From assembly GCF_002423035.1 (NCBI RefSeq), contig NZ_DIUM01000070.1, positions 48,056 through 112,055 on the forward strand: a stretch of 64,000 nucleotides of DNA, in the 5' to 3' direction. The DNA comes from Thiocapsa sp. UBA6158. Lineage in GTDB: Bacteria > Pseudomonadota > Gammaproteobacteria > Chromatiales > Chromatiaceae. Below, piece after piece: positions 30,100 to 50,021 of the stretch. The notes under the pieces were generated by a model. That model was not told the DNA's origin. It was given only the letters and a program-made list of their open reading frames with translations, and searched no databases. Position 1 is the first letter of the stretch, and each line of letters starts with the position of its first letter. Both the position numbers and the translations under genes were made by a program.

Positions 30100-30131
30100 A
30101 AACAAAAGCCGGCACAAGGCCGGCTTTTGAG
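30100..30131. terminator. bidirectional intrinsic terminator (ancestral terminator downstream of tRNA-Gly)
   Basis: The GCCGGC-ACAAG-GCCGGC hairpin (30108-30124) is flanked by an A-tract (ACAAACAAAA) and a T-tract (TTTTGA). Confidence 0.6.
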
Positions 30132-30210
30132 CTTTTGAGCTTTTGAGCTTTTGAGCTTTTGAGCTTTTGAGCTTTTGAGCTTTTGAGCTTTTGAGCTTTT
30201 GAGCTTTTGA
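30123..30210. repeat. perfect tandem octamer (GCTTTTGA) x 11
   Basis: Counted directly: 88 nt with no mismatch. The first unit is the 3' stem end plus T-tract of the terminator hairpin. The array ends 6 nt from the tRNA-Gly fragment. Confidence 0.95.
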
Positions 30211-30216
30211 TAAATT

Positions 30217-30263
30217 TGGAGCGGGAAACGAGATTCGAACTCGCGACCCCAACCTTGGCAAGG
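30217..30263 (-). repeat. att site: duplicated 3' 47 nt of tRNA-Gly (distal island junction)
   Basis: tggagcgggaaacgagattcgaactcgcgaccccaaccttggcaagg is identical at all 47 positions to 42000-42046. Identity ends abruptly at 30264. Confidence 0.9.
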
Positions 30264-30356
30264 AGATTGCTACCTTATTGACCACGGCGATACACGGAAA
30301 GATTAGCACGCGAGCGGCTCGGAGCAACACGGAATTACGCGGACCCTCCGCGAATG

Positions 30357-30488
30357 TGCGCAGAAAACTAAGCCCCTCTCTCCCTGGAAATGTCGGGAAG
30401 TCGGGAAGGTAGGGTTAACCCATTGCCTTGATTGAGAAAATACCTTCCCGACAGGGCTTTTCGGGTCGGGAGGATAAGTCGGGAAGGT
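30357..30488. repeat. iteron cluster A; about 130-bp copy of 36767-36896
   Basis: Near-identical to the segment downstream of the replicase gene, with a handful of mismatches. GTCGGGAAG cores at 30392, 30401 and 30478 (forward) and 30443-30452 (reverse), plus a degenerate copy at 30465. Confidence 0.85.
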
Positions 30489-30497
30489 TGGCGACCT

Positions 30498-30599
30498 GAT
30501 CGGAACCTGAAGGCAGCCTGTCCCAAAACGGAAGCGCTTCCGTTTTGGGACAGATCAGAACCTGAAGGAGGTGTTGACCGAAACTCACGTGAGTTTCGG
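30498..30599. repeat. palindrome / direct-repeat block at the island end
   Basis: A 16-nt direct repeat GATCRGAACCTGAAGG (30498-30513 and 30553-30568) flanks a perfect 36-bp palindrome, CTGTCCCAAAACGGAAGC|GCTTCCGTTTTGGGACAG (30518-30553). A perfect 22-bp palindrome, CCGAAACTCACGTGAGTTTCGG, follows at 30578-30599. Confidence 0.9.
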
Positions 30600-30624
30600 C
30601 GGAGGGCTAACTACAGGGGTGTGG

Positions 30625-30906
30625 TCAGCTCGGGTCGAGTTGGGCGGTTTGATCTTTTAGGCGATCTTCGAGCGCGTCTAAGTGTTGGCGCTCGTTGGAT
30701 GAAATCGCGTCCATCAACCGCGCCACGGCCGCCAATGACAAGCTCTCATCGCTGGCGATAACGCCTCGTTCCCGAAGAGCAGACTCGAACGCAGAGACCA
30801 GTTCCAAGGGACTATCTATGTCATCAAACCGGCCTGAATCCGACATCGGAATCAGTACGCTTAACATCCGCGGGACTGCATCGGGGTCGTTGACCTTGTT
30901 ACTCAT
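30625..30906 (-). CDS. hypothetical protein (island cargo)
   Basis: 93 aa from MSNKVNDPDAV. A GGAG lies 9 nt upstream of the ATG at 30906. Acidic. No family recognised. Confidence 0.5.
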   Translation of the reverse strand: MSNKVNDPDAVPRMLSVLIPMSDSGRFDDIDSPLELVSAFESALRERGVIASDESLSLAAVARLMDAISSNERQHLDALEDRLKDQTAQLDPS

Positions 30907-31031
30907 CGATCGGGCTCCGGGTGTGCCCGGGCATGCCGGGCGGGTTGGCGTGCGTCTGGATCCGAACCACGCAAGGGACTGGATCGGCAGACCCGCCACG
31001 CGGGCGGGTCTCGGGTTGAGCTCGAATCAGC

Positions 31032-31271
31032 TCAGACCAGGACGGCGACCCCGAAAGCGTCGGGGCCTTCAGCGTTGGCGATGTGTCCGCAGTCGAACCC
31101 CTCGCCTTCCGGTGCGACCCGGTAGCCAGATTCGGACACCAGCAGGACGGCGGATCGCCAGTCGAGCGCGGATCCGATCCGCTGCAAATCGCCCATATTG
31201 CCCTCCGCGTCGAACGGGACGGCGACCACGTCGCGCGGGGTGCCGTCGAGATAGGATTGATCGTTGCTCAT
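31032..31271 (-). CDS. hypothetical protein (island cargo)
   Basis: 79 aa, MSNDQSYLDGTPRDV.... Strong SD (AAGGAG) upstream of the ATG at 31271. Confidence 0.55.
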   Translation of the reverse strand: MSNDQSYLDGTPRDVVAVPFDAEGNMGDLQRIGSALDWRSAVLLVSESGYRVAPEGEGFDCGHIANAEGPDAFGVAVLV

Positions 31272-31319
31272 TCGTCCTTGCTCCTTGAGGTTGCGCCCGG
31301 CCGATGCCGGGCGGGTTGG

Positions 31320-31544
31320 TCAGTCTTGCAGGTCCAGCGGATCGAAGTCTTCTGCTCCGCCCTCGAATCGCGCGAAGGCGATGCACTGCTCGTCGGTCGC
31401 GTCATGCCCTCCCGGCCTGAAGAAGTTGCCCGCGAAGACGAACGCCCGGCCGTTGCGCTCGAACATTTTGAAGGATGTCGCAGGCTTGCCCCGCAGATTC
31501 ACGCGGGTCTTGTCCTCGATCCTGTAGTTCTCCACGTCGGTCAT
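31320..31544 (-). CDS. hypothetical protein (island cargo)
   Basis: 74 aa, MTDVENYRIEDKTRVNLRGKPATSFKMFERNGRAFVFAGNFF. SD GAGGG. ATGA overlap with the upstream ORF. Confidence 0.55.
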   Translation of the reverse strand: MTDVENYRIEDKTRVNLRGKPATSFKMFERNGRAFVFAGNFFRPGGHDATDEQCIAFARFEGGAEDFDPLDLQD

Positions 31545-31726
31545 GACCTTGCCCTCATTGCTCCGATCTGCGAAAGAAACTCGATGTCTTCCCGTGCCGG
31601 GTGATCCGGTGCGCAGAAAATAAGCGCGATGCTTGCTGAAAACAGCCGATCCGCTACCTCGTTCCACCGTTCCAGGTGCCATACCCCGCCGACGATCGCA
31701 TCTATCATGTGCTCGCTGTCGCTCAT
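31541..31726 (-). CDS. hypothetical protein (island cargo)
   Basis: 61 aa. SD GAGGAG 8 nt upstream. ATGA overlaps at both ends. Confidence 0.5.
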   Translation of the reverse strand: MSDSEHMIDAIVGGVWHLERWNEVADRLFSASIALIFCAPDHPAREDIEFLSQIGAMRARS

Positions 31727-32160
31727 GCCGCCTGCTCCTCAGCGGCGAGCTGGTCGACGGCCGTGATGATTGCCGCCTTCGCCTTCAGTCGGGCGGCGGC
31801 GATGCGCTCCTCCCGAGCCAGCGCGGCGGCTTGCTCGGCTTCGCGTTCGGCGATGCTGGCGTCCAGTGCGATGCTCAACAGACCGGCGGCGACTTCCGCG
31901 GCCGTCTCCCCCGTATCGGCGGCGATGCGGGCCAGGGTCGTTTCGCGTTCGGCGGTCGCAACCTCGTTGAAGGCGTCGGCGAACTCGAGTAAGCGGCTCG
32001 ACAGCAGGTGTGCCGCAGTCGCGATGCCTGACAGGCGATCGCGCTCGAAAGGTGTGTCGTCCAGCCCGCTTTCTTCGATGTCGAGCGTCCGGTTCAAGCC
32101 TTGCAGCGCCCACGCCAGTTGCCAAAGCTCACTCATGCCGCTGAATTGTGTTGCGCTCAT
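31723..32160 (-). CDS. hypothetical protein, Ala/Glu-rich helical (island cargo)
   Basis: 145 aa. SD GGAGG 7 nt upstream. ATGA overlap with the upstream ORF. Confidence 0.55.
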   Translation of the reverse strand: MSATQFSGMSELWQLAWALQGLNRTLDIEESGLDDTPFERDRLSGIATAAHLLSSRLLEFADAFNEVATAERETTLARIAADTGETAAEVAAGLLSIALDASIAEREAEQAAALAREERIAAARLKAKAAIITAVDQLAAEEQAA

Positions 32161-32477
32161 GAGCTCGCCTCCATCGGGGTCAATCCTGCATGGGCTCGGG
32201 TCGCCAAGCGGGTCAGTTCGGCGGCGCGACCGTCCGGGGCGGTCGTGACCATGTGCAGGATAGCGTCATGCCATCGGTGCGCGGCGACGACATCGGCGGC
32301 GCGCACGGGGTCACAGCGTAAGCCGTAGCGCACGACTCCGAAGAGTTGATGTGACAGGGCGATGCCCTTGTGAGCGAAGTCATCGCCGTCGATCGGCTTG
32401 CCGCAGCGCTGCATCTCGCCGACGAGATCGCGCGCGAGGAGGATGATGGATCGGCTCGGCTGGCGTTTACCTTCCAT
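32157..32477 (-). CDS. hypothetical protein (island cargo)
   Basis: 106 aa from MEGKRQPSRSIILLARDLVGEMQRCG. SD GGGAGG. The longer track ORF (to 32651) lacks coding character. Confidence 0.5.
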   Translation of the reverse strand: MEGKRQPSRSIILLARDLVGEMQRCGKPIDGDDFAHKGIALSHQLFGVVRYGLRCDPVRAADVVAAHRWHDAILHMVTTAPDGRAAELTRLATRAHAGLTPMEASS

Positions 32478-32715
32478 GTCGGCGACCTCCCAAGATCGAA
32501 CGGCGGCGGCGAACGCCGATAAACCGCAGCGCGGCTTCGATGCGAGCCAGTAGGGCCCGGGCCTCGGACAGCTCCCGGCCTTGCATGCCGGACAGGCACC
32601 AGGCGACGGACGCGCGAAGAGTGCGCAGTGTGCGATGGTCTCGACGCGCAAGGGCGTCTGATGTCATGCGGTGCCAAGTCGGCACGCGCAGTGATATATC
32701 ATGGCTGGTAGCCAT
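32467..32715 (-). CDS. hypothetical basic protein (island cargo)
   Basis: 82 aa. SD GGAGG 7 nt upstream of the ATG at 32715. 11-nt overlap with the next ORF. Confidence 0.45.
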   Translation of the reverse strand: MATSHDISLRVPTWHRMTSDALARRDHRTLRTLRASVAWCLSGMQGRELSEARALLARIEAALRFIGVRRRRSILGGRRHGR

Positions 32716-32795
32716 TGCCGAACCTCCGTTACAGGTTGGTGATGGTCAGGCATCCTCGGGCGTTGGCGCGCCCCTGGATGCCGATCTCCTCTACT

Positions 32796-32981
32796 TCACT
32801 TCGTCTTCGCGGTTCTCTTCCCCTCCCTCAGTTTCTTGCAGATGTCTCGGACCAGCGGTCTCGACTCCGCAGGCACCCACTCCGTAACCGACACGAACCC
32901 TTCGGCTCGCATCCGATCCCGCCATTCAGCCATGCGGACGCGGGTCGGTTTCCGTTTCTCGGTATCGGTAACATGTGACAT
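32796..32981 (-). CDS. DUF3018-like (MazE-family antitoxin-like) small protein
   Basis: KPTRVRMAEWRDRMRAEGFVSVTEWVPAESRPLV resembles the DUF3018 pattern (RVRxxRxRxRAxGLRPVQIWVPD). No MazF-like partner is adjacent. Confidence 0.5.
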   Translation of the reverse strand: MSHVTDTEKRKPTRVRMAEWRDRMRAEGFVSVTEWVPAESRPLVRDICKKLREGKRTAKTK

Positions 32982-33334
32982 ATGCCGAGTGTAACAGCGT
33001 GCGGACGGAAGTCTACATACCGTTCGTCGGTTTTTGCGCTCGGCGATGGATCCTCAAGGGTGCGCGCAAGGTGGCGTCGGCGCTGGTGATTTCTGCGGGT
33101 GCAGTCGGAAGGCATGACCCGATCCAGGTTGGGTTCGGTCTCTCCCTGAATCTCGCTTTCCGCTTCGGTCTCGACAGGCGATTCAGTGGATTCAGGCGTT
33201 GCTTCCTGGGTGTTTTGGGGTTCAGGTACTTCTTCAGTGTCGGTTTCTTTGATGTAAGAAACCTCATCAAAGTACCGATCGCCCCATGACTTAACGTCAA
33301 GACGGAAGCGCTGTGGGCTGCGGCTGTCGCACAT
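32828..33334 (-). CDS. hypothetical acidic protein (uncertain; conflicts with 32796-32981)
   Basis: From MCDSRSPQRFRLDVKSWGDRYFDEVSYIKETDTEEVPEPQNTQEATPESTESPVETEAESEIQGETEP. Locally low GC. The 3' third overlaps the DUF3018-like ORF in another frame and looks non-coding. Confidence 0.3.
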   Translation of the reverse strand: MCDSRSPQRFRLDVKSWGDRYFDEVSYIKETDTEEVPEPQNTQEATPESTESPVETEAESEIQGETEPNLDRVMPSDCTRRNHQRRRHLARTLEDPSPSAKTDERYVDFRPHAVTLGICHMLPIPRNGNRPASAWLNGGIGCEPKGSCRLRSGCLRSRDRWSETSARN

Positions 33335-33654
33335 GTCCAAGGCGTCGGAAGGCGTGACCTGATCCAGGAGGGGTTCGGGTCTCCTTGCGGATAAGGAGAG
33401 CGGACATCGGCGAACCCATGCGCAGATGTCGCGGCTCAAGGTTGAGCCGTGAGATTGCCCGGGCTCACTGCGCAGCGCTGCGCAGTGAGCGCAACCGGGG
33501 CACGGCACGGGTCAAGCGGGCGGTGCGGTCATCCTGAAGCGCGTAGAGCGGGCGCGCTTCGCGTTGACGGCCGCGGGCGGGGGCGGTGGGTCCAACATGC
33601 CGGCCAGGACCGTTGCGCGCTGCAGCGGCTTCCGGGTGGTCGCAGGCTTGCGGA

Positions 33655-33897
33655 TCAAGGCGGCGTATCGGGGCATCGGTCAATCCTCTCGGCTCGGCGG
33701 GGCGGTGGGACCAGGCGCAGATGTGACCGGCGGGCGGCGGCGCGGGCCTCCCGGTCGAGCCGGGCCTGCTCCGCTCGGAACCAGGACCGGAACAGCTCGA
33801 CGGCGGTGTCTTCGTCGGTCATGCGCACGTCGAACCCGCCCGAGTCGTTGGCGGCGAGCAGCAGCCCGTCAAGGTGCAGGGTCAGGGCGGGGTTCAT
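33655..33897 (-). CDS. hypothetical protein (island cargo)
   Basis: 80 aa from MNPALTLHLDGLLLAANDSGGFDVRMTDEDTAVELFRSWF. Weak SD. 29-nt overlap with the upstream ORF. Confidence 0.35.
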   Translation of the reverse strand: MNPALTLHLDGLLLAANDSGGFDVRMTDEDTAVELFRSWFRAEQARLDREARAAARRSHLRLVPPPRRAERIDRCPDTPP

Positions 33898-34189
33898 CGG
33901 CGTCTGTTCGTCGTGCGCGGTGCGCGGCGGCCTCGATGGCGGCCGCTCGGGTGATGGTCTCGAGTGTGCTGTAACGGAATCGACATCCAAGGCACTTGCG
34001 GCGGCGCCTGATGGCGTCGGCGCCGGCTTGGCGGGTCTCCAGTACTGCCGTGTGTTCAGACCCGCAGAGGGGGCAAGATGCGCTCAATGTACGGCCTCGG
34101 TGGTGGGTGCCGACTTTGCGACCGGGTCGGCGCCGGGAGGCCGCGGAGGAAGTCGCGACCTCGCAGCCGTCCAAAACTGCCCGCGCCAA
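33869..34189 (-). CDS. NrdR-type zinc-ribbon protein lacking the ATP-cone (Ogr/Delta-like size)
   Basis: CPLCGSEHTAVLETRQAGADAIRRRRKCLGCRFRYSTLE parallels the NrdR N-terminus (CPFCxxxDTKVIDSRxxxxGxxIRRRRxCxxCxxRFTTFE). A more likely start is TTG 34087, which has a GAGG SD and gives 72 aa beginning MSASCPLCG. Confidence 0.55.
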   Translation of the reverse strand: MARAVLDGCEVATSSAASRRRPGRKVGTHHRGRTLSASCPLCGSEHTAVLETRQAGADAIRRRRKCLGCRFRYSTLETITRAAAIEAAAHRARRTDADEPRPDPAP

Positions 34190-34192
34190 GAA

Positions 34193-34660
34193 TCAGGCAG
34201 CGATCCGGCCGAGATCGGGCGCCAAAACAACAGTAGGATCCGCATCGCCGCGTCGAACGATCGGCGTCGGCGAGCTGCGAATCGCGCGCTCTTCCTCGAT
34301 TTCCAGGCTACGCAGCTCCGCGTCGAGCTCGGCGAGGCGGCGGCGCCGGTCTGCGGCGCTGATGCCGGGCTCGGGATGTGCCTCGAAGGCAATCGCGGCG
34401 AGCCGTGCGGCGGTGCGCTCGAAGTCCAGCGCGGCGACGATCGAAAGCACGTCGATCCTGGATGCGGCGTGACTCGTCAAGTCGGTTTTGCCTTTGCGCA
34501 GCCGGGAGGGGTTAAGGATGTCCCGGCCGCGCTCGGCAAGGTGCTCGACCTCGGCGGCGATGCTTTCGGCCGCTTCGGCTTGGGCGGGCCACTCGCGTTC
34601 CACGGCTTTGCGCTCGGCTTGCAGGGCGGTGATGCGGTCGCGGATTTTCTCAATGGTCAT
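34193..34660 (-). CDS. hypothetical coiled-coil protein (island cargo)
   Basis: 155 aa from MTIEKIRDRITALQAERKAVEREW. ATGA overlap with the upstream ORF. Confidence 0.5.
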   Translation of the reverse strand: MTIEKIRDRITALQAERKAVEREWPAQAEAAESIAAEVEHLAERGRDILNPSRLRKGKTDLTSHAASRIDVLSIVAALDFERTAARLAAIAFEAHPEPGISAADRRRRLAELDAELRSLEIEEERAIRSSPTPIVRRGDADPTVVLAPDLGRIAA

Positions 34661-34917
34661 GCGATGGTTCCGATGATGTAGATGTTGCTGTTGTCGCTGC
34701 GGCGCTTCGCCGGCAGGCGTGCCCACGCGCGACCTCGCAGCCCGTCGCGGCGGAAGATGTCGCCTCCGCGCACCCATAGCCCACGCGCTGTCGGCGCCGG
34801 TTCGCTGTCGCTGAAAATCACCTCGAAGCCGTCCACGCCATCGCACTGACACGCGAAATCGAGCGAGGCGCCGGCGATCTCCGTATAAGCCGCAGTCAGG
34901 GGCACGGGGTCAGCCAT
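34657..34917 (-). CDS. hypothetical protein (island cargo)
   Basis: 86 aa, MADPVPLTAAYTEIAGASLDFACQCDGVDGFEVIF. 8-nt overlap upstream and ATGA downstream. Confidence 0.45.
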   Translation of the reverse strand: MADPVPLTAAYTEIAGASLDFACQCDGVDGFEVIFSDSEPAPTARGLWVRGGDIFRRDGLRGRAWARLPAKRRSDNSNIYIIGTIA

Positions 34918-35314
34918 TGGCGATGCGCCCGGTGTTGTCCTCCAGCCATTCCTCGCACGCGGTCAGCAGCTTGATTTGCGGCTTCCAGGCGGCTTGCGCG
35001 GACTCGATCGCCGTTTCCAGCTCGGCTAGGCGCTGCTCGACCATCTTCAGGTCAATTCGGGCGCCGGCTAGCTTCGGGTCTTCGGGCGTGCCGGGCACAC
35101 GAGGATTGCGCTGCAGGTCCACTCCCCATTGGGCGATGTACCGCGCAAGGTCTTGGCGCTCTTGGTGCAGCGCGAGGCGTTCGCCGATCAGCCCGGACAG
35201 GGCAGCGTGCGCGCCCTTGGCGGCGCGTCGCAGCTCCCGCAAGCGCATCTCGTAGGGCTCGAGCTTGGCGGCTCGGGCTTGCTTCTGAGCAAGCGTCAAT
35301 GGTGCCGAGATCAT
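34910..35314 (-). CDS. hypothetical helical protein (island cargo)
   Basis: 134 aa. SD GGAGG 9 nt upstream. ATGA overlap with the upstream ORF. Confidence 0.5.
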   Translation of the reverse strand: MISAPLTLAQKQARAAKLEPYEMRLRELRRAAKGAHAALSGLIGERLALHQERQDLARYIAQWGVDLQRNPRVPGTPEDPKLAGARIDLKMVEQRLAELETAIESAQAAWKPQIKLLTACEEWLEDNTGRIANG

Positions 35315-35703
35315 CGCTGAAAGCCTCCGCGATCCGGCCGCACAATCCGCGATCGCGGCGCGCTCATGTCCACGTCGCGCGCGGGTCCACCGGTGCGGCC
35401 TGACGACAGGGCTTTTTCGAGTGCTTCCATCGCGCGCATTTGCGCGTCAGTAGTCCCGGACGCAGAGGGGCCGGCCTGGTTGGCGCGGTGCGGCTCGTTG
35501 GCGGCGATCTGCGCGAGGGCTTCGTCCATCTCGGCTTGCTGCTCGGCGGACATCTTGCGCGGCGTTGGATAGTGGCCTGCGGTGATCTCGGGGCCGATCG
35601 CTGCGCCGACGGCGAGCGCGACCGGCCGATGTTTGATGATGCTGTTGTCGATCATGTTCGTGTCCGGTGTTTGGAGTGCGGACATTTTCAGCCGACGAAT
35701 CAA
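35311..35703 (-). CDS. hypothetical protein (island cargo)
   Basis: Up to 130 aa. The TTG at 35703 overlaps the upstream stop (TTGA). Alternative ATG starts at 35685 and 35655. Confidence 0.45.
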   Translation of the reverse strand: MIRRLKMSALQTPDTNMIDNSIIKHRPVALAVGAAIGPEITAGHYPTPRKMSAEQQAEMDEALAQIAANEPHRANQAGPSASGTTDAQMRAMEALEKALSSGRTGGPARDVDMSAPRSRIVRPDRGGFQR

Positions 35704-36293
35704 CCATCAAAACCGGGTGTTTGGTGTTCGGCGATAATGCGCTTCAGGTGCGTCGCGGATGTCGGAGCCGGTGCGCTGCTCAAGGCGAACCACAGCTCGC
35801 ACTGCAGAGGGCTAAGGCGTGCCGGTGGTTGTGCATGGTGCCGGGACCATCGCCAGGTGGACGCCTCGAACATCCCGATCTCGCTCGCCAGCTCACGGAT
35901 GCGCGCGGGGGTAGACGTGTCTTCGTTGAACGGGACCAGGGCGAAGGCGCGGCGGAGGTGCCGATCTCGACGGGAAAGGCGCTCGCGGGTCGCAAGGCTC
36001 GCGATGCCGCGGCCGCGGATGCCGAGACCCTCATCCAAGGTCGCCACAGCTCCGGTGGCCGCTAGGCGCAGCCCATCGGCGAGGAAAGCCGCGGCCTCCG
36101 GGTCGGTCCGGGCGGTCGCGGTGATCGCGCGGCGCAGCATGGCGAGCCCTTCATTCTGTTTCATATCGACAATCTCGATCCATAGCCAGTTGACATCGAA
36201 CATATCTGCTGCCGAGACCCTAAGCGACTGAAATCCTGTCGAAAACCGGGGCTCGAATTCCCCGCGGTTACGGCGGGGGTGCCGGGGTCCCAT
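35700..36293 (-). CDS. hypothetical protein (island cargo)
   Basis: Up to 197 aa. The start is uncertain (ATG 36293, 36203 or 36164). The coding-like part begins around MKQNEGLAMLRRAITATART. Confidence 0.45.
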   Translation of the reverse strand: MGPRHPRRNRGEFEPRFSTGFQSLRVSAADMFDVNWLWIEIVDMKQNEGLAMLRRAITATARTDPEAAAFLADGLRLAATGAVATLDEGLGIRGRGIASLATRERLSRRDRHLRRAFALVPFNEDTSTPARIRELASEIGMFEASTWRWSRHHAQPPARLSPLQCELWFALSSAPAPTSATHLKRIIAEHQTPGFDG

Positions 36294-36372
36294 CGCTGCT
36301 GAATCTTCCGAGAGAACATGCGGTTGCGAAACTCAGCCGAGCCCGTTGGATGCTGCATCGAAAGCATGACCC

Positions 36373-36747
36373 TCAAAACGCGGAAGTCAGCAGCCGGCCG
36401 ACGTGGTTCATGGTGTCGAGATCCACGTCGGCGGCGAACCGAACGGCCGCCCTACCCTGCTCATCTACGGCGACCTCCGTAACCGCGTCGGCGAGATCCT
36501 CCACCTCTAAGCAGAACCTCAGCTCGTCCACCGTCCACGGTTCCCGGCGCGTCACGGATCCAGGGCGAGCCTCACGCGGGTTTCGCGTCTGCTCGCTCTT
36601 GGCCCACTTCCGCGCGAACTTCATGCAGGTGGTTGCCTTCCCGATGACGAAGACCTTCCGAGCGGTCACACAGTAGTTCGTCGCGCTGGTGAAGGACTGA
36701 CAGTCGCAACAGCGGACCTGAGGGCGGTCATCATCCTTGCGGGCCAT
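36373..36747 (-). CDS. hypothetical Cys-containing protein, first gene after the iteron region
   Basis: 124 aa, MARKDDDRPQVRCCDCQSFTSATNYCV...TTCMKF. Strong SD GGGAGGG upstream of the ATG at 36747. Confidence 0.55.
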   Translation of the reverse strand: MARKDDDRPQVRCCDCQSFTSATNYCVTARKVFVIGKATTCMKFARKWAKSEQTRNPREARPGSVTRREPWTVDELRFCLEVEDLADAVTEVAVDEQGRAAVRFAADVDLDTMNHVGRLLTSAF

Positions 36748-36766
36748 GCCAAGCCCTCCCGGTGTG

Positions 36767-37011
36767 TGTGCAGAAAACTAAGCCCCTCTCTCCCTGGAAA
36801 TGTCGGGAAGTCGGGAAGGTATGGTTAACCCATTGCCTTGATTGATAAAACGCCTTCCCGACAGGGCTTTTCGGGTCGGGAAGGCAAGTCGGGAAGCGTG
36901 CCGTTACCCTTCCCGACTTTTGCAGCCTTCCCGACTTCCGAAAAACCATGTCGGGAAGGTCTAACCCCACGCCAGCCTTGAGCAAAACAGCAACCTTCCC
37001 GACTTCCCGAC
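36767..37011. promoter_or_regulatory. iteron cluster B (candidate replication origin) immediately 3' of the replicase gene
   Basis: Ten perfect GTCGGGAAG cores. Forward copies are at 36802, 36810, 36875, 36888 and 36950. Reverse copies are at 36854, 36909, 36927, 36995 and 37003. An 18-nt inverted pair, GTCGGGAAGTCGGGAAGG (36802-36819) and its complement (36994-37011), brackets an AT-richer core (TTAACCCATTGCCTTGATTGATAAAA). Confidence 0.7.
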
Positions 37012-37030
37012 TTTTCACAGATAACACCTA

Positions 37031-39883
37031 TTAACTTTCATGGAGAGCGGGGGAGGCTTCGTGTTCAGGCGATCCGCTCGGAAGCAACTGCCCTAGAGGC
37101 ATCCGCCACACACGATCGGGGGAGATGTTGGCCCGGTTATGCTTGTGCCCGATGTCGCGCCCCGAGCCCCGCTGCAGGAATCCGCGTTCGGCGAGCGCTT
37201 TCGCCAGCCGGTGTTGCGAACGCGGCGCCCCTGCTCCCTGGTCTCTGGCGAGCTTGGCAATCGCCGTATACGCGGCGGCTGGACTGAGCCAAAGCTGCGG
37301 GCCTAGGTCGTTGGCTTGGTCGACGAAGTAGCCGATCGGCTCCCCGAGTGCCTCGAATCGCTGCTCTACGCGCGGCTCCCCGTCTGGTCCCTCATTGCGG
37401 TGCATGTGAATGGTTGTTTTCCAGCCCAAGAGGTGTGATCGGGATACGGGCGGTTTCGACGCCGGCACTTGTGCTGCGTCGATGACGTGGACGCGACCGA
37501 GAGAGAATGCCGCCCTGAGTAGTTCCATCGCGCGAACGGCATCCTCCGAGGTTTCCTGCAGGTCGGCTTGAACCCTCGCTTGGTCCAGCAAGGCGCTTTT
37601 GCACCGCGATTCGAGATCGGCGGCGCGCTCCCGAGACAGCGCCCCGATGTCGAGCGCGAAGCGAAAGAAGACTTCGATCGAGAGACGCATTCCCGCCAAG
37701 TTGGCCGGGATGCGCTCATGGTCCCGAAGCTCCGAGCCGACTTCGGCGCGAAGCTCTTCGTAGCGGATCGGCAGTTCGGCTTCGAGCTGCTCCGCACGGG
37801 AGGCGATCCACCGCAGATATCCGGACATCGCGGCGGCGTAGATTCCCGCTCTGGCGTGACGCTGGCACTCGGTAAGGATGTCCAGCTCCATCGTCCCCGG
37901 GGTCAAGCTGAGAATCCACATTCGCGCCCGCAACGAACGCCCGGCCGGTAGGTCTTCACCGGATGCCGAGACCATGCCTCTCGGGTAGTAGGTCCGACGC
38001 AAGCGGGTGTCGGCGGTCATGCGCCCCCGGCCGGCTTGGTTGGCGGCGCCACGAAAGACGCGATCGGCCTTGATGCTCATGGCCTGTTGATCGCTCGCGG
38101 TCCCTTGAGGGTTGTAGTCGTCGATCTCGAACAAGGCATCCTTGATGCCGAACGCCTTTTTCATCATGGCGTTTTCGGTACTGGACCAGCTTTCGGGGAA
38201 GGACCGCGCATTCCAGCCCTGCCCATAGTGGGCCATCGCCAGGGCGGCGATCTCGGACTTGAAGGTCCCCGACCGGCCGTCTACGAAAACCCCGCAATCC
38301 TGCCGATACCATCCGCCGAGCGGCGGGCCGTAGATCCGCGCCAACTGGACGGCGCCCACGCCGTCGTTAACGAGCCGCATCTGGAGCAGCGATTTCCGCA
38401 CCGCGTCAACCAATGCCGGCGGTTCCGGTGGGTGCGGGAGGTGGTAGTTCATCAGGTTGTCTTCGAGCTCGACATCAATGTCGTCTCGGGCTCCATTCGC
38501 CGTGATCGCGCCTCCCGCGTGCAGGTAAACAAGCTCGCCGCCGATCTTCCTCCATCCCGTGTGGGTGTAGATTTGGCGTGTCACCATGTCTCGGCTGTAG
38601 GTCTGGATCGCCGCCCGCAGATGGTCACGGACGGATGACCCGGCCGTGACGACGTATTGATGACCGAGCTTGTTCGTGACCCACGCCATCCCGCTGAACT
38701 GTGCGGTCAGGATCTCCACGTCCACCGTTGAGACGCCACCCGCGGAGGGCCGATAAACCTTGAGCTGCGTTCGATGCTCGGTCTCCACGCCGTCGTCATA
38801 CAGGCGCTGCTCGGCGACCACGGCCGAAAAGTTGGCGAGCGGTATCCGCTTCTCGGTCGTCTCCCTGGATTCGCCGCGGCCTGTCGTGATGGTCCGCAAC
38901 TGGTAGAAAACCCCTTTAGACCAGACGTAGGGGCCGATCTGTTCATCCTCCGGGACCTCTTCGGGCTCGGGCTCCGGCTCCGCTGCGGGTGGCGGTCGTT
39001 CCTCCGCGTGACGGGCGCGCGGGTTCGCCCATCCGCACTTTTGCGCCTCAGCGAAGACAGCGCGGTAATCCAGCTCCGAGCCCTGGAAGCTGCGCCACTT
39101 GGCGGCGGCTTGTGCCGCGTCGAACTTCTCGGATGTCGCGCTCCAAGCGAGCCACAAGCCCCGGCCGATGTTGCCGTAAGCCGAGAGCGCGAGCCCCATC
39201 CGAACCCACGTTTCATAGGGGTCGGCGTCGATGGTAAAGAGGGCTTCGCGTAGCTCGGAGATTTGGCGCGGCTCAAGGGCATGCCGAGGTGTTGCTGTGG
39301 GCTCCGCTTCGCGACCCGATTCATGGCCGCGATGCAAAGGCGTCAGGGTGTCGCGAACAAAAGGGGCAAGGTCCTCAAGGTCGCCCCCGAGGGCCTCGCC
39401 GGTAACGGTGAAGTAGCGACCCCTGCAATACGCCTCGATCCCGGTCTTGTTTGAGCCCAAGCCCTCGAACGCGGAACCGTGGCCGATCGCGTGCACTCCC
39501 TTACCGGACGGCGACCGCTCCACGTAGCCCGGTAGGATGTCGATCAAAGCTGCAAGCTCGGACCGCTCCGCCGTGTTGTCTAGGTCGATCCCTTGCCAGA
39601 CGAGTCCGTCATCATCCGGACCGAGCGCAAATCCGAGCCCAGCGTATCCGCCACGCGCGACGGCGTGGACGGCTTCGTCCATCGTCACCAGGCAAGCCAG
39701 ATCCTCCGGACTGTCGAGCTTTCCGGATCGCTTCTTACCGTTGGCGTAGTACGGGACCTTTCGCGGCTTCGGTTTGGCCGGTATCAGCTTCCACACCAGC
39801 CAGCGCCGCGCGGCCTGCATGGTGGTGGGAATCTCAAGCTGGAGTGTTTCCAGGGGTGGCGGTGTCGGGGCGTCGTCACGCAT
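37031..39883 (-). CDS. replicase: bifunctional Prim-Pol + PriCT-2 + C-terminal P-loop (helicase-like) protein
   Basis: Prim-Pol motifs are present: RRWLVWK...KVPY, GIDLDN, SPSGKGVH, IEAYCRGRYFTVTG. A PriCT-2 block follows (WVRMGLALSAYGNIGRGLWLAWSATSEKFDAAQAAAKWRSF), then a Walker-A-like GRSGTFKS at about residue 570. Confidence 0.85.
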   Translation of the reverse strand: MRDDAPTPPPLETLQLEIPTTMQAARRWLVWKLIPAKPKPRKVPYYANGKKRSGKLDSPEDLACLVTMDEAVHAVARGGYAGLGFALGPDDDGLVWQGIDLDNTAERSELAALIDILPGYVERSPSGKGVHAIGHGSAFEGLGSNKTGIEAYCRGRYFTVTGEALGGDLEDLAPFVRDTLTPLHRGHESGREAEPTATPRHALEPRQISELREALFTIDADPYETWVRMGLALSAYGNIGRGLWLAWSATSEKFDAAQAAAKWRSFQGSELDYRAVFAEAQKCGWANPRARHAEERPPPAAEPEPEPEEVPEDEQIGPYVWSKGVFYQLRTITTGRGESRETTEKRIPLANFSAVVAEQRLYDDGVETEHRTQLKVYRPSAGGVSTVDVEILTAQFSGMAWVTNKLGHQYVVTAGSSVRDHLRAAIQTYSRDMVTRQIYTHTGWRKIGGELVYLHAGGAITANGARDDIDVELEDNLMNYHLPHPPEPPALVDAVRKSLLQMRLVNDGVGAVQLARIYGPPLGGWYRQDCGVFVDGRSGTFKSEIAALAMAHYGQGWNARSFPESWSSTENAMMKKAFGIKDALFEIDDYNPQGTASDQQAMSIKADRVFRGAANQAGRGRMTADTRLRRTYYPRGMVSASGEDLPAGRSLRARMWILSLTPGTMELDILTECQRHARAGIYAAAMSGYLRWIASRAEQLEAELPIRYEELRAEVGSELRDHERIPANLAGMRLSIEVFFRFALDIGALSRERAADLESRCKSALLDQARVQADLQETSEDAVRAMELLRAAFSLGRVHVIDAAQVPASKPPVSRSHLLGWKTTIHMHRNEGPDGEPRVEQRFEALGEPIGYFVDQANDLGPQLWLSPAAAYTAIAKLARDQGAGAPRSQHRLAKALAERGFLQRGSGRDIGHKHNRANISPDRVWRMPLGQLLPSGSPEHEASPALHES

Positions 39884-40094
39884 GGGTGAAGAACTCCCGC
39901 GTCACCGTAACGCTGTACCGGGCTCGCCGGCCGTCGCGCAGACGCACCGTAACGCCAGACACGGCGACGGTCTCGGGGAGAACGCCGGTCGTCTCGGCGT
40001 ATTTCATGAGGGCATTCTGCAGCCCGGATCCGAGCGATTGCCTCAGCGGCGCGTGTCGGTTCCGGGGCGGTTTTGGCAAGGTTGGGGTGGGCAT
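39876..40094 (-). CDS. hypothetical small basic protein upstream of the replicase
   Basis: 72 aa from MPTPTLPKPPRNRHAPL. SD GGAGG. 8-nt overlap with the replicase start. Confidence 0.45.
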   Translation of the reverse strand: MPTPTLPKPPRNRHAPLRQSLGSGLQNALMKYAETTGVLPETVAVSGVTVRLRDGRRARYSVTVTREFFTHA

Positions 40095-40290
40095 GTGATC
40101 GGCCTCCAAGCATGTGGACGGCCAACCGCGCAAAGACGGGAGCAGACACGACAGATGCACCGCGGGCGCGGTATCATCATCATGCCGGTGCACCTTTGGC
40201 TTTGATCGGTCGGTGCTTAAACGTCGCGGTCGGACTTGCAGGTCCTCCGCGAACGGCTCACAACATAATTGATCGAGGCGATAACATCCA

Positions 40291-40331
40291 GACCGACCGG
40301 GGCGCAATCCCGGCCGGTCTTTCTGTTTCCG
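40291..40331 (+). terminator. terminator-like hairpin oriented on the plus strand inside an all-minus-strand island
   Basis: GACCGACCGGGG-CGCAAT-CCCGGCCGGTC (one mismatch) followed by TTTCTGTTTCC. It lies in a 268-bp ORF-free gap (40095-40362). Confidence 0.4.
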
Positions 40332-40362
40332 CTCCATCGGTCGCTCGTCTTGGCGCGCCGGC

Positions 40363-40869
40363 TCATAGCTGGCCACCTTCCCTGATCCGCTCGAGCGCAT
40401 CCCGAACAAGCTCTTCCGCCAGGTCGTTCGCGGCGGATCCGCGCGCGCTGGCCATGGCTCGAAGGGCGTCCGCCTCGCTGGGCTTCATCCACACACTCAG
40501 CTCTACAACGCCTTCAGGATCCGCTACAGCTTCCGGCGGAACCGCCGGAACCGTTTCTTTTTTGCCACCCAACTCGACAACGCCATCGGGCTCGGTCGCG
40601 GGGGCAGGTGCGTTTTGCAGATCCTCCGCTTTCTGCGCTTCGTCGCGGATGATCTCCAGGACCTTCGTGGCGAGCCCGGGACCGCACAGAGAGCCGCTCG
40701 CCCCGGGACGAGGGATATATTCGCCGCTGGCTACAAGTTCCGCGCGATGCTTCCGAATGAACCACTCGAACGACGAGTAGCTCTTGAAGATCGAGCCGCC
40801 TTTCTCGGCGACCCATTGGCGCATCGTTCGCCAATCTGACAAATCGACGTGAACGGGTTGGGATTGCAT
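40363..40869 (-). CDS. hypothetical protein with C-terminal ribbon-helix-helix-like segment
   Basis: 168 aa. SD GGAGG 7 nt upstream. The C-terminus LSVWMKPSEADALRAMASARGSAANDLAEELVRDALERI looks CopG/Arc-like. There is an internal repeat EPDGVVEL / DPEGVVEL. Confidence 0.55.
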   Translation of the reverse strand: MQSQPVHVDLSDWRTMRQWVAEKGGSIFKSYSSFEWFIRKHRAELVASGEYIPRPGASGSLCGPGLATKVLEIIRDEAQKAEDLQNAPAPATEPDGVVELGGKKETVPAVPPEAVADPEGVVELSVWMKPSEADALRAMASARGSAANDLAEELVRDALERIREGGQL

Positions 40870-41024
40870 GAACTGGCCTCCGAAAGTTCGCCACCACGGC
40901 GTGTTTCAGCAGGCTAAGTTGTTTTTCATACTGTTCAAGCTGCTTTTGCTGAAACCGACCCGAAGCGTCGTGGAACCCCTCACTTCGTCGGTCGGTTTCT
41001 TGTCGGGCGGGTGTTGCGATGTCT

Positions 41025-41906
41025 CTAGCCGAACACGCGATCCACCACGTCGAGCTTGTCGGATGCGTTGGCGTGCATGTAGCGCGCGCTCGCGCTCAAG
41101 GTGCGGTGTCCCATGACGGCCATGATGGCGGCCTGATTGACCCCGGAGGTTGCCATCGCATGCCCGCAGCCGTGGCGCAGTTGATGGAAGTTGCGACCCG
41201 GCAGACCCGCCTCGGTGCAGACGCGAATCCAGAGACGGCGGAACCCGAACGGGCGCCCCTCGCTACCCTCGAAGACCAGGGCATCCGGTTGCTTCCCCGG
41301 CAGCAGGCGCAGTGCATCGGCCGCACGCGCGGAGAGTGCGGAGACCTGGGGCCGGCCGTTCTTGGTCTTCAGTACGGTGATGGTGCGGCGCTCAAGGTCC
41401 ACGTCGCCCCATCGAAGGGTCATGAGATTGCCGACGCGCAACCCGGTGTGAAAGGCAACCAGGACCAGGGCAGACAGCTTGCCCCATCGGGTGTCGAGTA
41501 GACGGGTGACGGCAAGGATACGCTCGACCTCCTCCGCGCGAAGGTATCGGTTCGGGTCGGCGGGCTCGGGGGATTTCTCCACGCCGCGCGTCGGGGGCAC
41601 ATGGGCACGGGGCAGCAGACGCAGGCGTCGAGCGTATTTGAAGACGGAGGCGAGTTGCGAGACGTAGCGGTTATAGGTGGCGCCGGACATGGGCGCGCCG
41701 GCCGGCTCGGTGGCTTGACCGCGGCGGGGCACCAGGCGCCCGCGTTCGGCGAGCCGAACAAGCGCAAGGTCCACGTCGTCGGCGGTGATCTCGGCGAGAT
41801 CCCGAGAGCCGAGCGACTCATCCCAAAACGCGAGACGGGCCAGGGTTCCCCGGTCGAATTCGCGCGACGCGACGAACGCGTCAATGGTCACGGAAAGTGT
41901 AGGCAT
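41025..41906 (-). CDS. int: tyrosine-type site-specific integrase
   Basis: 293 aa. The catalytic pattern is present: AFHTGLRVGN (R), HQLRHGCG (HxxR), MGHRTLSASARYMH (H...Y). It lies 93 bp from the tRNA-Gly 3' end. Confidence 0.9.
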   Translation of the reverse strand: MPTLSVTIDAFVASREFDRGTLARLAFWDESLGSRDLAEITADDVDLALVRLAERGRLVPRRGQATEPAGAPMSGATYNRYVSQLASVFKYARRLRLLPRAHVPPTRGVEKSPEPADPNRYLRAEEVERILAVTRLLDTRWGKLSALVLVAFHTGLRVGNLMTLRWGDVDLERRTITVLKTKNGRPQVSALSARAADALRLLPGKQPDALVFEGSEGRPFGFRRLWIRVCTEAGLPGRNFHQLRHGCGHAMATSGVNQAAIMAVMGHRTLSASARYMHANASDKLDVVDRVFG

Positions 41907-41999
41907 AAAACTTGCTCCGAGTGCAAAACGATCAGAACCGTGAACTGATCGCCGTGGCGGCGCACTTTCGGAAGCAATTTCAAGCGCTTAGGGTTGAAT

Positions 42000-42046
42000 T
42001 GGAGCGGGAAACGAGATTCGAACTCGCGACCCCAACCTTGGCAAGG
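42000..42046 (-). repeat. att site: 47-nt core within the intact tRNA-Gly (proximal island junction)
   Basis: Identical to 30217-30263. Confidence 0.9.
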
Positions 42047-42074
42047 TTGTGCTCTACCACTGAGCTATTCCCGC
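42000..42074 (-). tRNA. tRNA-Gly (anticodon GCC)
   Basis: The reverse complement is GCGGGAATAGCTCAGTGGTAGAGCACAACCTTGCCAAGGTTGGGGTCGCGAGTTCGAATCTCGTTTCCCGCTCCA. It has a 7-bp acceptor stem, D loop, anticodon loop CTTGCCAAG, T arm GTTCGAATC and an encoded CCA. Confidence 0.95.
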
Positions 42075-42203: not shown

Positions 42204-42779
42204 TCAACCACGCCCCTCGATATCGACCTGACCGGACAGGCTCGGCCAAGCGGCGTGCAGATAGAGCACCATCGACCAGAGTGTCAGGACGGCAGCGACG
42301 TACAGAAGAACGACACCCAACCCGTAGACCCAGGGTCCGAAGACTGTATCGTGCAGGATCATGAGCACGATCGAGATCATCTGGGCCGTGGTCTTGATCT
42401 TGCCGGTCATGGAGACCGCGACCTTGGCGCGCGCACCGATCTCGGCCATCCACTCGCGCAGCGCAGAGACCGTGATCTCGCGTCCGATGATGACCATCGC
42501 CGGGAGCGCCAAGAACGTGCGAGGGTCGTACTGAACGAGCAGGACGAGCGCGACCGCAACCATCAGCTTGTCGGCGACCGGATCGAGGAAGGCGCCGAGC
42601 GGCGAGGTCTGCTCCCAGAGACGCGCAAGATAGCCGTCAAGCCAATCCGTCAGGGCGGCCGCACCGAAGACCGCGGCGGCGACGTAGGGCGCCCAGGGTG
42701 CGCCCATGTAAAAGACGACGACAAACACCGGAATCAAGACAATCCGGAGCATCGTCAGAATGTTGGGGATATTCCACAT
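42204..42779 (-). CDS. pgsA: CDP-diacylglycerol--glycerol-3-phosphate 3-phosphatidyltransferase
   Basis: MWNIPNILTMLRIVLIPVF...DWLDGYLAR...DPVADK is the CDP-alcohol phosphatidyltransferase motif. The uvrC-pgsA-tRNA-Gly order matches enterobacteria. Confidence 0.95.
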   Translation of the reverse strand: MWNIPNILTMLRIVLIPVFVVVFYMGAPWAPYVAAAVFGAAALTDWLDGYLARLWEQTSPLGAFLDPVADKLMVAVALVLLVQYDPRTFLALPAMVIIGREITVSALREWMAEIGARAKVAVSMTGKIKTTAQMISIVLMILHDTVFGPWVYGLGVVLLYVAAVLTLWSMVLYLHAAWPSLSGQVDIEGRG

Positions 42780-44636: not shown

Positions 44637-44748
44637 GTGCGGATTAGAGCGCAAACGACCGATGCCGATCCAGACCAAACCTCAATGCAACACGAGGCGC
44701 TGTCATGCCGAACCGATCTTTCGCTTCGCCCCGGACCGCCCTCTCCTT

Positions 44749-44951: not shown

Positions 44952-46133
44952 ATGCGCGTCGACCCGCTCACCAAGACCAAAAGACCGATCAGCGTCCTTG
45001 CGCTCGGCTTCCGGCCCTTCTTCCTGGCCGCAGGGATCGCCGCCATCCTCTCCGTCTTGATCTGGCTCGCGATGCTGACGGGGCATGTCCCGCAGCCCGG
45101 CTATCTCGCCGGGCCGGCTTGGCACGCCCATGAGATGCTCTTCGGTTATCTGGCGGCCGTCATCGCAGGGTTCCTGCTGACAGCCGTGCGCAACTGGAGC
45201 AGCATGGACACGCCGACGGGTCCGGCACTGGCGGGATTGGTCGCACTCTGGTTGGCTGCGCGTCTGATGCCCTGGCTCGGGCTGCCGCCGCTGCTGGTCG
45301 CCCTCACCGATGTCGCCTTCTTCCCGGTTCTGGCGTTCGCATTGCGACGGCCGCTCTGGTTCGGTCCCAACCCGGTGAACCGCGTCTTCCTGCTGCTGTT
45401 CGCCGGCATGATGCTCGCGAGTGCTTCGGTGCATCTGGATGTGCTCGGCGTCCTTCCGGGCGGGGTGGCGCGGGGTCACCGTCTGATGCTGGACCTGGCC
45501 ATCCTGACGATGCTTTTGGTCTCGGGCCGCGTGATGCCCTTCTTCATCGAGCGCGGAATTGCCGGCGCCAAGCCGCGAAGCTTTCAGTTCCTCGAGCGTC
45601 TGAGCTTCCTCCTCGCCGCAGCACTCCTGGTCGCGGACCTCATGCAGCCCTATGGATCTCAGTCAGGCGCTTTTGCGATTGCGTTGGGTCTGGTGCTCTT
45701 GATACGGATCCTCGGTTGGCACGATCGACGTCTCTGGACAACACCCATGTTGACCGTACTCTATGTCGGGCTGCTCTGGCTTGCGCTTGGCCTGATCCTG
45801 GACGGTGTCCCCGCCTTTACCGACCTACCCGCCCGCGGCGCGCTGCACACCCTGACCATCGGGGCCATCGGTGTGGTGACGCTCGGGATGATGGCCCGGG
45901 TCGCCGTCGGCCATACGGGTCGCGCGATGCAGGCCGCTCGCCTGACCATCCTCGCCTTCGTCCTGATCAACTGCGCCGCGGCTTTGCGCGGTCTCGCACC
46001 TCTGATCTACCCGGCCGGTTACCACGCCTGGCTGATGAGCGCCGGGATCTGCTGGATCCTCGCCTTCGGACTCTTCCTCTGGGTTCATGCACCTATGCTG
46101 GTCGCGCCCCGACCGGACGGGCGATCCGGCTGA
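44952..46133 (+). CDS. nnrS: NnrS family membrane protein
   Basis: 393 aa. LALGFRPFFLAAGIAAIL...WHAHEMLFGY...NWS and 12 TM segments are typical of NnrS. Confidence 0.9.
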   Translation: MRVDPLTKTKRPISVLALGFRPFFLAAGIAAILSVLIWLAMLTGHVPQPGYLAGPAWHAHEMLFGYLAAVIAGFLLTAVRNWSSMDTPTGPALAGLVALWLAARLMPWLGLPPLLVALTDVAFFPVLAFALRRPLWFGPNPVNRVFLLLFAGMMLASASVHLDVLGVLPGGVARGHRLMLDLAILTMLLVSGRVMPFFIERGIAGAKPRSFQFLERLSFLLAAALLVADLMQPYGSQSGAFAIALGLVLLIRILGWHDRRLWTTPMLTVLYVGLLWLALGLILDGVPAFTDLPARGALHTLTIGAIGVVTLGMMARVAVGHTGRAMQAARLTILAFVLINCAAALRGLAPLIYPAGYHAWLMSAGICWILAFGLFLWVHAPMLVAPRPDGRSG

Positions 46134-50019: not shown

Positions 50020-50021
50020 GC

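Follow-up and report, generated by a model that had tools for sequence, protein, structure and literature searches.

The phage satellite P4 has an 11.6-kb genome that integrates at the 3' end of a tRNA gene, and it has two separated iteron regions, ori and crr, and a single large protein that unites primase, helicase and origin-binding functions. Generic genomic islands at tRNA genes encode an integrase beside the tRNA, duplicate the tRNA 3' end, regenerate the tRNA and vary in presence between strains. Phage-inducible chromosomal islands (PICIs), such as SaPI1, SaPI5, SaPIbov1 and EcCICFT073, are integrated by an integrase between flanking direct repeats, measure ~11-15 kb and carry a downstream operon of small proteins. 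They encode a Rep or Pri-Rep initiator-helicase with an iteron origin of replication (ori) immediately 3', its iterons oppositely oriented on the two sides, as described for SaPIs (PMC9371898). The tycheposons of Prochlorococcus pair a tyrosine recombinase with a primase/helicase replication module, are flanked by full and partial tRNAs, swap their integration and replication genes as modules and are PICI-like in size (bioRxiv 10.1101/2020.12.28.424599). Here we analysed a stretch of 64,000 nucleotides (the window, to which all positions refer; contig NZ_DIUM01000070.1) from Thiocapsa sp. UBA6158, a purple sulfur gammaproteobacterium of the Chromatiaceae. The PgsA, integrase and replicase encoded in it are identical to RefSeq proteins of this organism. 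It contains an island of 11,735 bp (30264-41998; 11,783 bp from repeat to repeat) next to the gene for tRNA-Gly(GCC). The island was inserted at a 48-bp core in the tRNA 3' end, the tRNA was regenerated, and wild populations are polymorphic for the site. Taken as a whole, the locus is very probably an integrative, self-replicating mobile island in the Thiocapsa chromosome. The element is of an ordinary kind, a classical tRNA-integrated tyrosine-recombinase island with its own replicon.

With PICIs the island has in common the mode of integration, the size, the place and layout of its iterons and the downstream operon of small proteins, and its primase domain matches SaPI5 PriRep5 (7OLA). An integrase, a pri/rep gene and an adjacent predicted iteron ori on 11.7 kb reproduce the replication side of a PICI. 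On the packaging side no terS, cpm/pti, rpp or capsid gene could be recognised, though novel analogues may be present. The island further differs from PICIs in having one-strand genes without a divergent Stl-type repressor, a short integrase of 293 aa and a purple sulfur host. Like P4, it sits at a tRNA 3' end, encodes one large primase-helicase protein and has two iteron regions (36802-37011 and 30392-30487). Unlike P4, its integrase lacks Arm-DNA-bind_3 and Phage_int_M and matches PF00589 only, its primase is a primase-polymerase with PriCT-2 instead of Toprim, its genes are unidirectional, and Pfam and PHROGs gave no Psu, Delta or Sid match. The likeness to tycheposons is one of architecture. 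Tycheposons are defined by a hallmark gene pool shared in cyanobacteria and carry nutrient-acquisition cargo or terS and major capsid protein genes, neither of which the Thiocapsa island was found to have. Compared with generic tRNA islands, which it resembles in all points named above, the Thiocapsa island stands out by its compactness and a replicon of its own, and no fitness, virulence or defence genes could be identified as its cargo.

The tRNA-Gly insertion site and its empty counterparts

The tRNA-Gly(GCC) gene is the sole tRNA gene that ARAGORN detected in the window, and its 3'-terminal part recurs at the opposite end of the island. The initial annotation had described a perfect repeat of 47 bp (30217-30263 and 42000-42046). 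The repeat is indeed exact, but it is 48 bp long: besides the 3'-terminal 47 nt of the tRNA, including the encoded CCA, the base after CCA matches as well. Identity breaks off sharply at 30264/42047 (an abrupt stop on the inner side of both copies had been claimed), and beyond the other side of the core there are just scattered matches. An exact match of 48 bp cannot arise by chance, and the window contains no further copy of the core. Had a tRNA 5' half stood just right of 30263, it would have spoken for a separate degenerate tRNA gene; none was found there (best local alignment score 6.0 versus 5.3 +/- 1.2 for shuffled sequences). Outside the tRNA end, pgsA (42204-42779) and uvrC (42783-44678) are immediately adjacent, so that the uvrC-pgsA-tRNA-Gly order resumes beyond the repeat in the manner first noted. 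Through the insertion, the native tRNA-Gly terminator and an octamer array have been displaced 11.8 kb from the tRNA.

This arrangement had initially been read as site-specific integration into a tRNA 3' half that regenerates the tRNA, with the expectation that an empty site would show tRNA-Gly followed directly by the octamer and terminator region. Contigs were found via an identical PgsA protein and then compared with the window by blastn. In two of them, L003 (ENA ERZ27315072, 66 kb) and L005 (JGI 3300038536), the flanks are 99.97-99.99% identical over ~10 kb on each side, and 30263 is joined directly to 41999 via a single 48-bp core. Both contigs show an empty attB: the intact tRNA-Gly runs straight into AAATTTATC, and behind this come the octamer array and the terminator hairpin. 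Another contig (L008), whose flanks fall in the same range of identity, has the same empty-type junction with one core. ENA, JGI, Logan and NCBI together yielded at least 13 further assemblies with an occupied site, their islands being 99.8-100% identical to ours. Sample 3300038536 even contained both states: L005 is empty and L019 occupied, the latter extending across the island and its two junctions. Empty and occupied contigs do not differ in the 75 nt of the tRNA gene. Since near-identical wild genomes lack the island, its insertion is real and recent, and the initial reading of integration with tRNA regeneration is borne out.

We also looked for the excised form. A 72-nt attP pattern had no match among JGI metagenome contigs, where a control pattern from the JGI contig L012 likewise had none, so this collection misses the samples concerned. 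No free circular contig was present among ~40 assemblies. Two contigs of ~12 kb (L019 and L020) looked like island-only circles, and blastn identified them as integrated forms with chromosomal flank.

Some observations concern the surroundings of the insertion site. L012 (JGI 3300001605 Draft_10000160, 92 kb) carries the island with 100% identity over 11,054 bp, plus the whole tRNA-Gly. At its end (1-229), 225 nt of AT-rich DNA foreign to the window precede the tRNA, and the first 80 nt encode the PgsA C-terminus (...LTLWSMYEYLRAAWADLAARS*) of a different, lower-GC organism. The same island in a second host could produce such an end; an assembly chimera via the identical 75-nt tRNA is more likely. 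The copy number of the octamer (GCTTTTGA)n among near-identical contigs (L003, L005, L017-L021 and the window) was 3, 6, 9, 11 or 12 units, where the two counts of 6 include one contig that stops inside the array. This variation is independent of island presence; the array is a micro-repeat of hypervariable length within the 3' trailer of the tRNA. The right flank past uvrC (44952-52800) contains nnrS, YgbA_NO-domain, cytochrome c, HPP-family, moeA, MoCF_biosynth and ThiS-like genes, as called on L001-L004. It is ordinary chromosomal context with no more signs of mobile elements.

Integrase, replicase and predicted origin

A tyrosine recombinase gene had been annotated 93 bp off the tRNA, and the profile match to PF00589 supports this assignment, covering profile positions 2-170 of 172. 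The catalytic residues R, HxxR, H and Y are all there, in the motifs GLRVGN (155), HQLRH (241), GH (266) and ARY (274). NCBIfam models gave weak Xer-like scores far under their cut-offs. The protein consists of core-binding and catalytic domains alone. Lacking an arm-binding domain, it probably acts on a simple attP and may depend on the small upstream proteins for directionality. An 88% identical integrase is encoded on a Logan contig, L028. An inverted repeat of 36 nt brackets int, and its core GTGCGCCGCCACGGCG is kept upstream of int in L028; possibly it is an operator or a recombinase-accessory or accessory-protein site. Between int and the replicase gene lie genes for a 168-aa and a 72-aa protein. 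The former had no match in Pfam, PHROG, NCBIfam or PADLOC, and we infer, tentatively, that it is a candidate regulator or excision factor. The claim that all open reading frames between the repeats share one strand holds for the publicly called island genes, which are on the minus strand, save for a doubtful plus-strand call of 96-104 aa at ~32975-33289 in a low-GC spacer.

Upstream of int, a strong promoter-like site (TTGACA-16-TAAAAT, 42115-42088) and the tRNA both point into the integrase gene. A conserved hairpin followed by GTTTTG lies between them and int. It is a matter of speculation that tRNA read-through could contribute to int expression.

The largest island gene encodes a replication protein of 950 aa. 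Its PriCT-2 domain (PF08707, 9e-12) is accompanied by matches to PHROG DNA primase families. The N-terminus is of the archaeo-eukaryotic type and matched the NrS-1 primase-polymerase (6a9w, 1.9e-11) and 7OLA (1.7e-7) in the PDB. The latter structure is that of PriRep5, in which the staphylococcal satellite SaPI5 unites a primase with a self-loading initiator-helicase (PMC9371898). Homologues of the C-terminal region (~600 aa) carry DUF927 (PF06048). Searches of phage and plasmid collections returned partial matches only, at less than 33% identity; homologues of the helicase region occur on actinobacterial and archaeal plasmids. Beyond these, homologues of the helicase/initiator region (~347-903) with 25-40% identity were found in metagenome-assembled genomes of Planctomycetota, Acidobacteriota, Chloroflexota, Armatimonadota and others (L032-L109) and in some IMG/VR viral contigs (L110-L155), mostly in unrelated elements, where they are fused to varied primases (PriCT-2, Toprim or DUF3854). 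The helicase/initiator region represents a modular replicase that is widespread among mobile elements.

Ten GTCGGGAAG iterons, the first of them 20 bp past the replicase stop codon, form a cluster that has an inward-pointing tandem pair at each end (36802/36810 forward, 36995/37003 reverse). This sequence occurs 18 times in the window versus 7.65 expected, and 14 of the 18 copies lie within two island clusters. In every fetched relative of the replicase an iteron cluster is found at the same position, and the repeat sequence shifts with the protein: it is GTCGGGAAG in L028 (replicase 77% identical), GTCGGAAG in L029 and L026 (58-61%) and AGTGGGAA in L022 (47%). In L156, GGTCCGGG iterons stand downstream of a non-homologous replicase. 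The SaPI ori consists of 6-12 iterons immediately downstream of rep, at least two per side, in opposite directions (PMC9371898). Because the iterons of relatives stand at the same place and the layout matches the SaPI ori, 36802-37011 is predicted to be the replication origin. A partial duplicate of it begins 80 bp inside the distal att core and extends to 230 bp; in a circle it would come to lie ~270 bp upstream of int. Among the relatives examined, such a second iteron cluster exists only in this island, while L026 has one stray site. Our guess is that this copy is a candidate second cis-replication site, perhaps crr-like as in P4.

These parts suggest the following cycle, modelled on what is known of tyrosine recombinases and SaPI replication. 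A circular form with attP, i.e. the core and its flanks, would recombine with attB in the tRNA gene via the integrase, and the same integrase, possibly with one small upstream protein, would reverse the integration. In the excised form the 950-aa primase-polymerase/helicase may bind the ten iterons just downstream of its own gene, and would then melt and prime the origin as SaPI Pri-Rep proteins do, whereupon the circle would be replicated. The partial ori copy near the other end might act as a second cis site.

Accessory genes and a family of related islands

Past the predicted origin lie a gene for a Cys-rich protein, a block of five genes designated A-E and a distal operon (Table 1). Their products had no match in Pfam, PHROGs, NCBIfam or PADLOC, a weak match of one 61-aa protein excepted.

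Table 1. Features of the tRNA-Gly island and its borders, from the distal to the tRNA end
Feature	Position	Strand	Evidence and remarks
Native tRNA-Gly terminator hairpin	30103-30129	-	terminator scan; chromosomal flank outside island
8-bp tandem array (GCTTTTGA)x11	30123-30210	-	repeat search; chromosomal flank outside island
att core, distal copy, 48 bp	30216..30263		partial tRNA 3' end without 5' half
Partial ori duplicate, 150 nt, four iterons	30344..30493		90% identical to 36754-36903
93-aa gene	30625-30906	-	gene calls
79-aa gene	31032-31271	-	gene calls
74-aa gene	31320-31544	-	63% identical in L156
61-aa gene (second)	31541-31726	-	gene calls
145-aa gene	31723-32160	-	gene calls
106-aa gene	32157-32477	-	94% identical in L156
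82-aa gene	32467-32715	-	90% identical in L156
RF00043 (R1162/IncQ plasmid antisense RNA), full-length sub-threshold match	32708..32783	-	37.5 bits versus gathering score 55, E 0.0017
61-aa basic protein, first of distal operon	32796..32981	-	79% identical open reading frame at same place in L156
54-aa gene	33512-33676	-	62% identical in L156
80-aa gene	33655-33897	-	52% identical in L156
Gene E, 155 aa	34193..34660	-	L156 63%, L158 52%; also L026 (two copies), L028, L029, L161
Gene D, 86 aa	34657..34917	-	38-40% in L156, L158
Gene C, 134 aa, coiled-coil-like	34910..35314	-	47-48% in L156, L158; weak in L028
Gene B, 114 aa	35311..35655	-	43% identical to L158
Gene A, 167 aa as called (conserved start M14)	35700..36203	-	L156 64%, L158 55%; also L029, L028, L031
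124-aa protein, N-terminal Cys cluster (CCDC...C...C)	36373..36747	-	no family match
Predicted ori, ten GTCGGGAAG iterons	36802..37011		first iteron 20 bp past replicase stop codon
950-aa replication protein	37031..39883	-	primase-polymerase ~15-170, PriCT-2 212-280, helicase/initiator ~320-940
72-aa protein, overlapping primase start	39876..40094	-	77% identical in L028
168-aa protein	40363..40869	-	gene calls; N-terminal 80 aa 69% conserved in L028 (blastp)
Inverted repeat, 36 nt, 83% complementary, bracketing int	41950-41985 and 40866-40901		between att core and int; start of 168-aa gene
Tyrosine recombinase/integrase, 293 aa	41025..41906	-	PF00589 1.2e-24; phrog_1 1e-45
att core, tRNA side, 48 bp, int-adjacent junction	41999..42046		exact match to 30216-30263
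tRNA-Gly(GCC), intact	42000..42074	-	ARAGORN; Rfam RF00005 71.9 bits

Related islands were found at several tRNA genes. The island of the window (tRNA-Gly(GCC), 48-bp repeat, 11.78 kb) combines the 293-aa integrase with the 950-aa primase-polymerase/PriCT-2/helicase protein, and L028, which is incomplete, starts inside the same Gly core. Thiohalocapsa marina (L026) has an island of 10.95 kb at tRNA-Thr with a repeat of at least 40 bp, a P4-type integrase and a replicase 58% identical to ours. An ENA contig (L156) carries one of 11.74 kb at tRNA-Leu(TAA), with a 30-bp repeat, a 353-aa integrase and a RepB_primase/PriCT-2/DUF5906 replicase. At tRNA-Arg(CCT) of Thiocapsa sp. CP073760 (L158/L159; 16-bp repeat, 10.9 kb), a P4-type integrase and AlpA are joined by a Toprim_3 primase and a separate DUF927 helicase. 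Finally, the tRNA-Gln island of Allochromatium humboldtianum (L031; 58-bp repeat, 14.4 kb) encodes a short integrase (~30% identity) and a replicase 52% identical over 307-937. P4-type integrases together with AlpA are carried by L022, L026 and L158. The islands of L156 and L158 share A-E with the window island despite unrelated integrases and replicases (accessory identities 38-94% overall), and L156 additionally shares the 80-, 54-, 61-, 82-, 106- and 74-aa genes (52-94% identical). The four complete islands with accessory-block genes measure 10.9-11.8 kb. From these comparisons we infer that the Chromatiaceae islands form a modular family, in which the integrase/att module (tRNA-Gly, -Leu, -Arg, -Thr or -Gln) and the replicase would be swapped while A-E are kept. 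PICIs and tycheposons show mosaicism of this sort. In the literature searched, no paper links Chromatiaceae with such islands.

Protein E belongs to a very large family that carries no annotation. Its profile retrieved 2,314 representative clusters at E<=1e-3 from 1.84 billion proteins. A C-terminal motif, PI-RR-DADP-VL, is conserved, and the model consists of helical hairpins. AlphaFold2 models are all-helical for both E (pLDDT, the per-residue model confidence, 83) and A (pLDDT 75). Foldseek comparison of A and E with PDB and BFVD gave no match at E<1 and non-significant matches to coiled coils, and the E profile had no match among PDB sequences. The 46 E-family members had no Pfam match and just isolated single-member matches in PHROG and NCBIfam (E 0.006-0.009, at the search threshold). 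E and its relatives were absent from 50,697 phage records and from 72,556 plasmid records, the latter searched with one E-family member, and the loci at which distant helicase homologues occur likewise lack E. A distant member, P0126 (34% identity, 169 aa; L161, Logan SRR31358558_567, 479-5135), is encoded 1 kb upstream of a gene for a tape-measure protein (1,049 aa; phrog_12706, 2e-118) on a 7.8-kb contig. This context is a single weak link of the E family to tailed-phage morphogenesis. Downstream of the tape-measure gene stand an 81-aa open reading frame and a gene for a RelA/SpoT-domain protein (phrog_4773) rather than tail-tip genes; L161 might be another kind of phage-derived island.

Most public gene calls overlook the gene that opens the distal operon. 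This gene is real, given the 79% identical open reading frame in L156. Its 61-aa basic product, a candidate small repressor, weakly resembles KorA as well as MazE-like/DUF3018 proteins (PF11455 at 7.7e-4, short of the gathering score). The RF00043-like match covers the start codon of the 82-aa gene together with its ribosome-binding site and recurs at the same place in L156 (11803-11878, plus strand). It may be a regulatory RNA, either a leader or an antisense cassette. Neither blastn nor tblastn matched the region of this motif and the 61-aa gene in the 72,556 plasmids. The distal genes (30625..32715) had no family matches.

Between the two accessory operons lies a spacer of ~530 bp with lower GC content (32982-33511, ~57%), whose counterpart in L156 measures ~230 bp. 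It contains two 35-nt direct repeats (33104-33138 and 33344-33378), 240 bp apart and 89% identical, each of which starts with the iteron-like GTCGGAAGG. Two perfect palindromes (30518-30553 with 18-bp arms and ~30578-30599 with 11-bp arms) follow the last island gene at a distance of 255-340 bp from the distal core. Both are without a T-tract, and they could be protein-binding sites for packaging or recombination rather than terminators.

Transfer, alternative explanations and meaning

Pfam, PHROG and NCBIfam searches detected no capsid, terminase, relaxase, coupling, partition or type IV secretion family among the island proteins. Because capsid, terminase, relaxase and secretion genes could not be recognised, transfer from cell to cell is most likely helper-dependent. 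Given the narrow size range and a plan like that of SaPIs, our leading, though decidedly tentative, guess for the route is that the element hijacks phage particles, as satellites do.

Under PICI/P4 logic, the island would be a phage satellite: a helper phage would induce excision and replication, and one or more of A-E would redirect helper capsid assembly or packaging towards genomes of ~11 kb. Its plan is that of SaPIs and other PICIs, from int and small genes through a fused primase-helicase and an iteron ori to an operon of small proteins. The four islands with accessory-block genes keep within their size range despite swapped modules, yet this clustering comprises four islands only. Two iteron regions on 11.7 kb recall P4 ori and crr, C and E share a coiled-coil-like character with scaffold-type proteins, and the gene of a distant E member precedes a true tape-measure gene by 1 kb. 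However, terS, capsid, portal, Sid/Psu/Delta and Cpm/Rpp families were not detected. None of the 46 E members was convincingly placed in PHROGs (the single match, E 0.0089, is at threshold), the 50,697 phage records gave no match, IMG/VR contained no close relative, and no helper was identified. We regard a satellite as possible, at odds well below even. A more specific proposal, on which we place slightly less weight, is that the islands at tRNA-Gly, -Leu, -Arg, -Thr and possibly -Gln are undescribed phage satellites, with A-E as capsid- or packaging-hijack module and E as alternative scaffold or adaptor.

As the main alternative, the island could be an integrative mobilisable element or integrated plasmid that replicates as a plasmid and moves by oriT mobilisation, vesicles or transformation. 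The autonomous replication module with iterons would fit, as would the MazE-like/KorA-like small protein next to the sub-threshold R1162 (IncQ)-like RNA motif and the actinobacterial and archaeal plasmids that carry homologues of the helicase region. On the other hand, integrative mobilisable and conjugative elements are recognised by relaxase, coupling and type IV secretion families, of which Pfam and NCBIfam revealed none; partition families were not found either, and an oriT is not recognisable from sequence. Moreover, the plasmid-like region had neither a nucleotide nor a protein match in 72,556 plasmids, and the ~40 assemblies contained no free circle. We consider this explanation unlikely. 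As for a defence island, PADLOC matched no anti-phage system among ten island proteins.

A decayed prophage, fixed at the tRNA and immobile, would account for the phage-type integrase at a tRNA site and for the many small genes without annotated function. It is contradicted by genomes that share more than 99.9% identity yet differ in whether the site is empty or occupied, in one sample even side by side, by the retained catalytic motifs of the integrase and by island copies 99.8-100% identical across many samples. Pfam and PHROGs revealed no capsid, portal, terminase, tail or lysis remnant, a tailed phage would need more than 11.7 kb, and the relatives show the same compact plan and size. We therefore reject this reading as very improbable. 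That 30216-30263 is an independent degenerate tRNA or local duplication, or the repeat an assembly artefact, has nothing but the repeat itself in its favour and is dismissed, with practically no probability left to it, by the missing 5' half beside 30263, by identical junctions in independent ENA, JGI, Logan and NCBI assemblies and by the polymorphic site, whose empty form has exactly one core.

Several points weigh against an integrative, self-replicating mobile island. Population polymorphism is the one line that points to current activity, and no excised circle was found. No excisionase could be recognised among the island proteins. The origin and the binding of its iterons are predictions from comparison. 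With regard to the route of transfer, the island contains no terS, no Sid/Psu/Cpm-like and no Rpp-like gene, and close relatives were absent from IMG/VR viral contigs and from phage and plasmid collections. Its GC content (64.0%) is also indistinct from that of the flanks (66.0% and 63.7%), so the donor was probably a close relative, or the residence long; as there is no anomaly, composition is silent on the origin of the island. Even so, we hold with high confidence to an island that integrates and replicates by its own means.

As a textbook case, the locus offers exact att cores, an empty site from the wild and a comparative origin prediction in the little-studied Chromatiaceae. Its wider interest lies in islands of ~11 kb that exchange integrases, tRNA targets and replicases while an unannotated block stays. 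Should this block exploit a helper, the islands would represent a new satellite lineage, together with a marker for finding more: if A-E are a hijack module, the E family, with its more than 2,300 clusters, would mark many more such elements across bacteria. Otherwise, the island would be a self-replicating integrative replicon and a possible genetic tool for purple sulfur bacteria.

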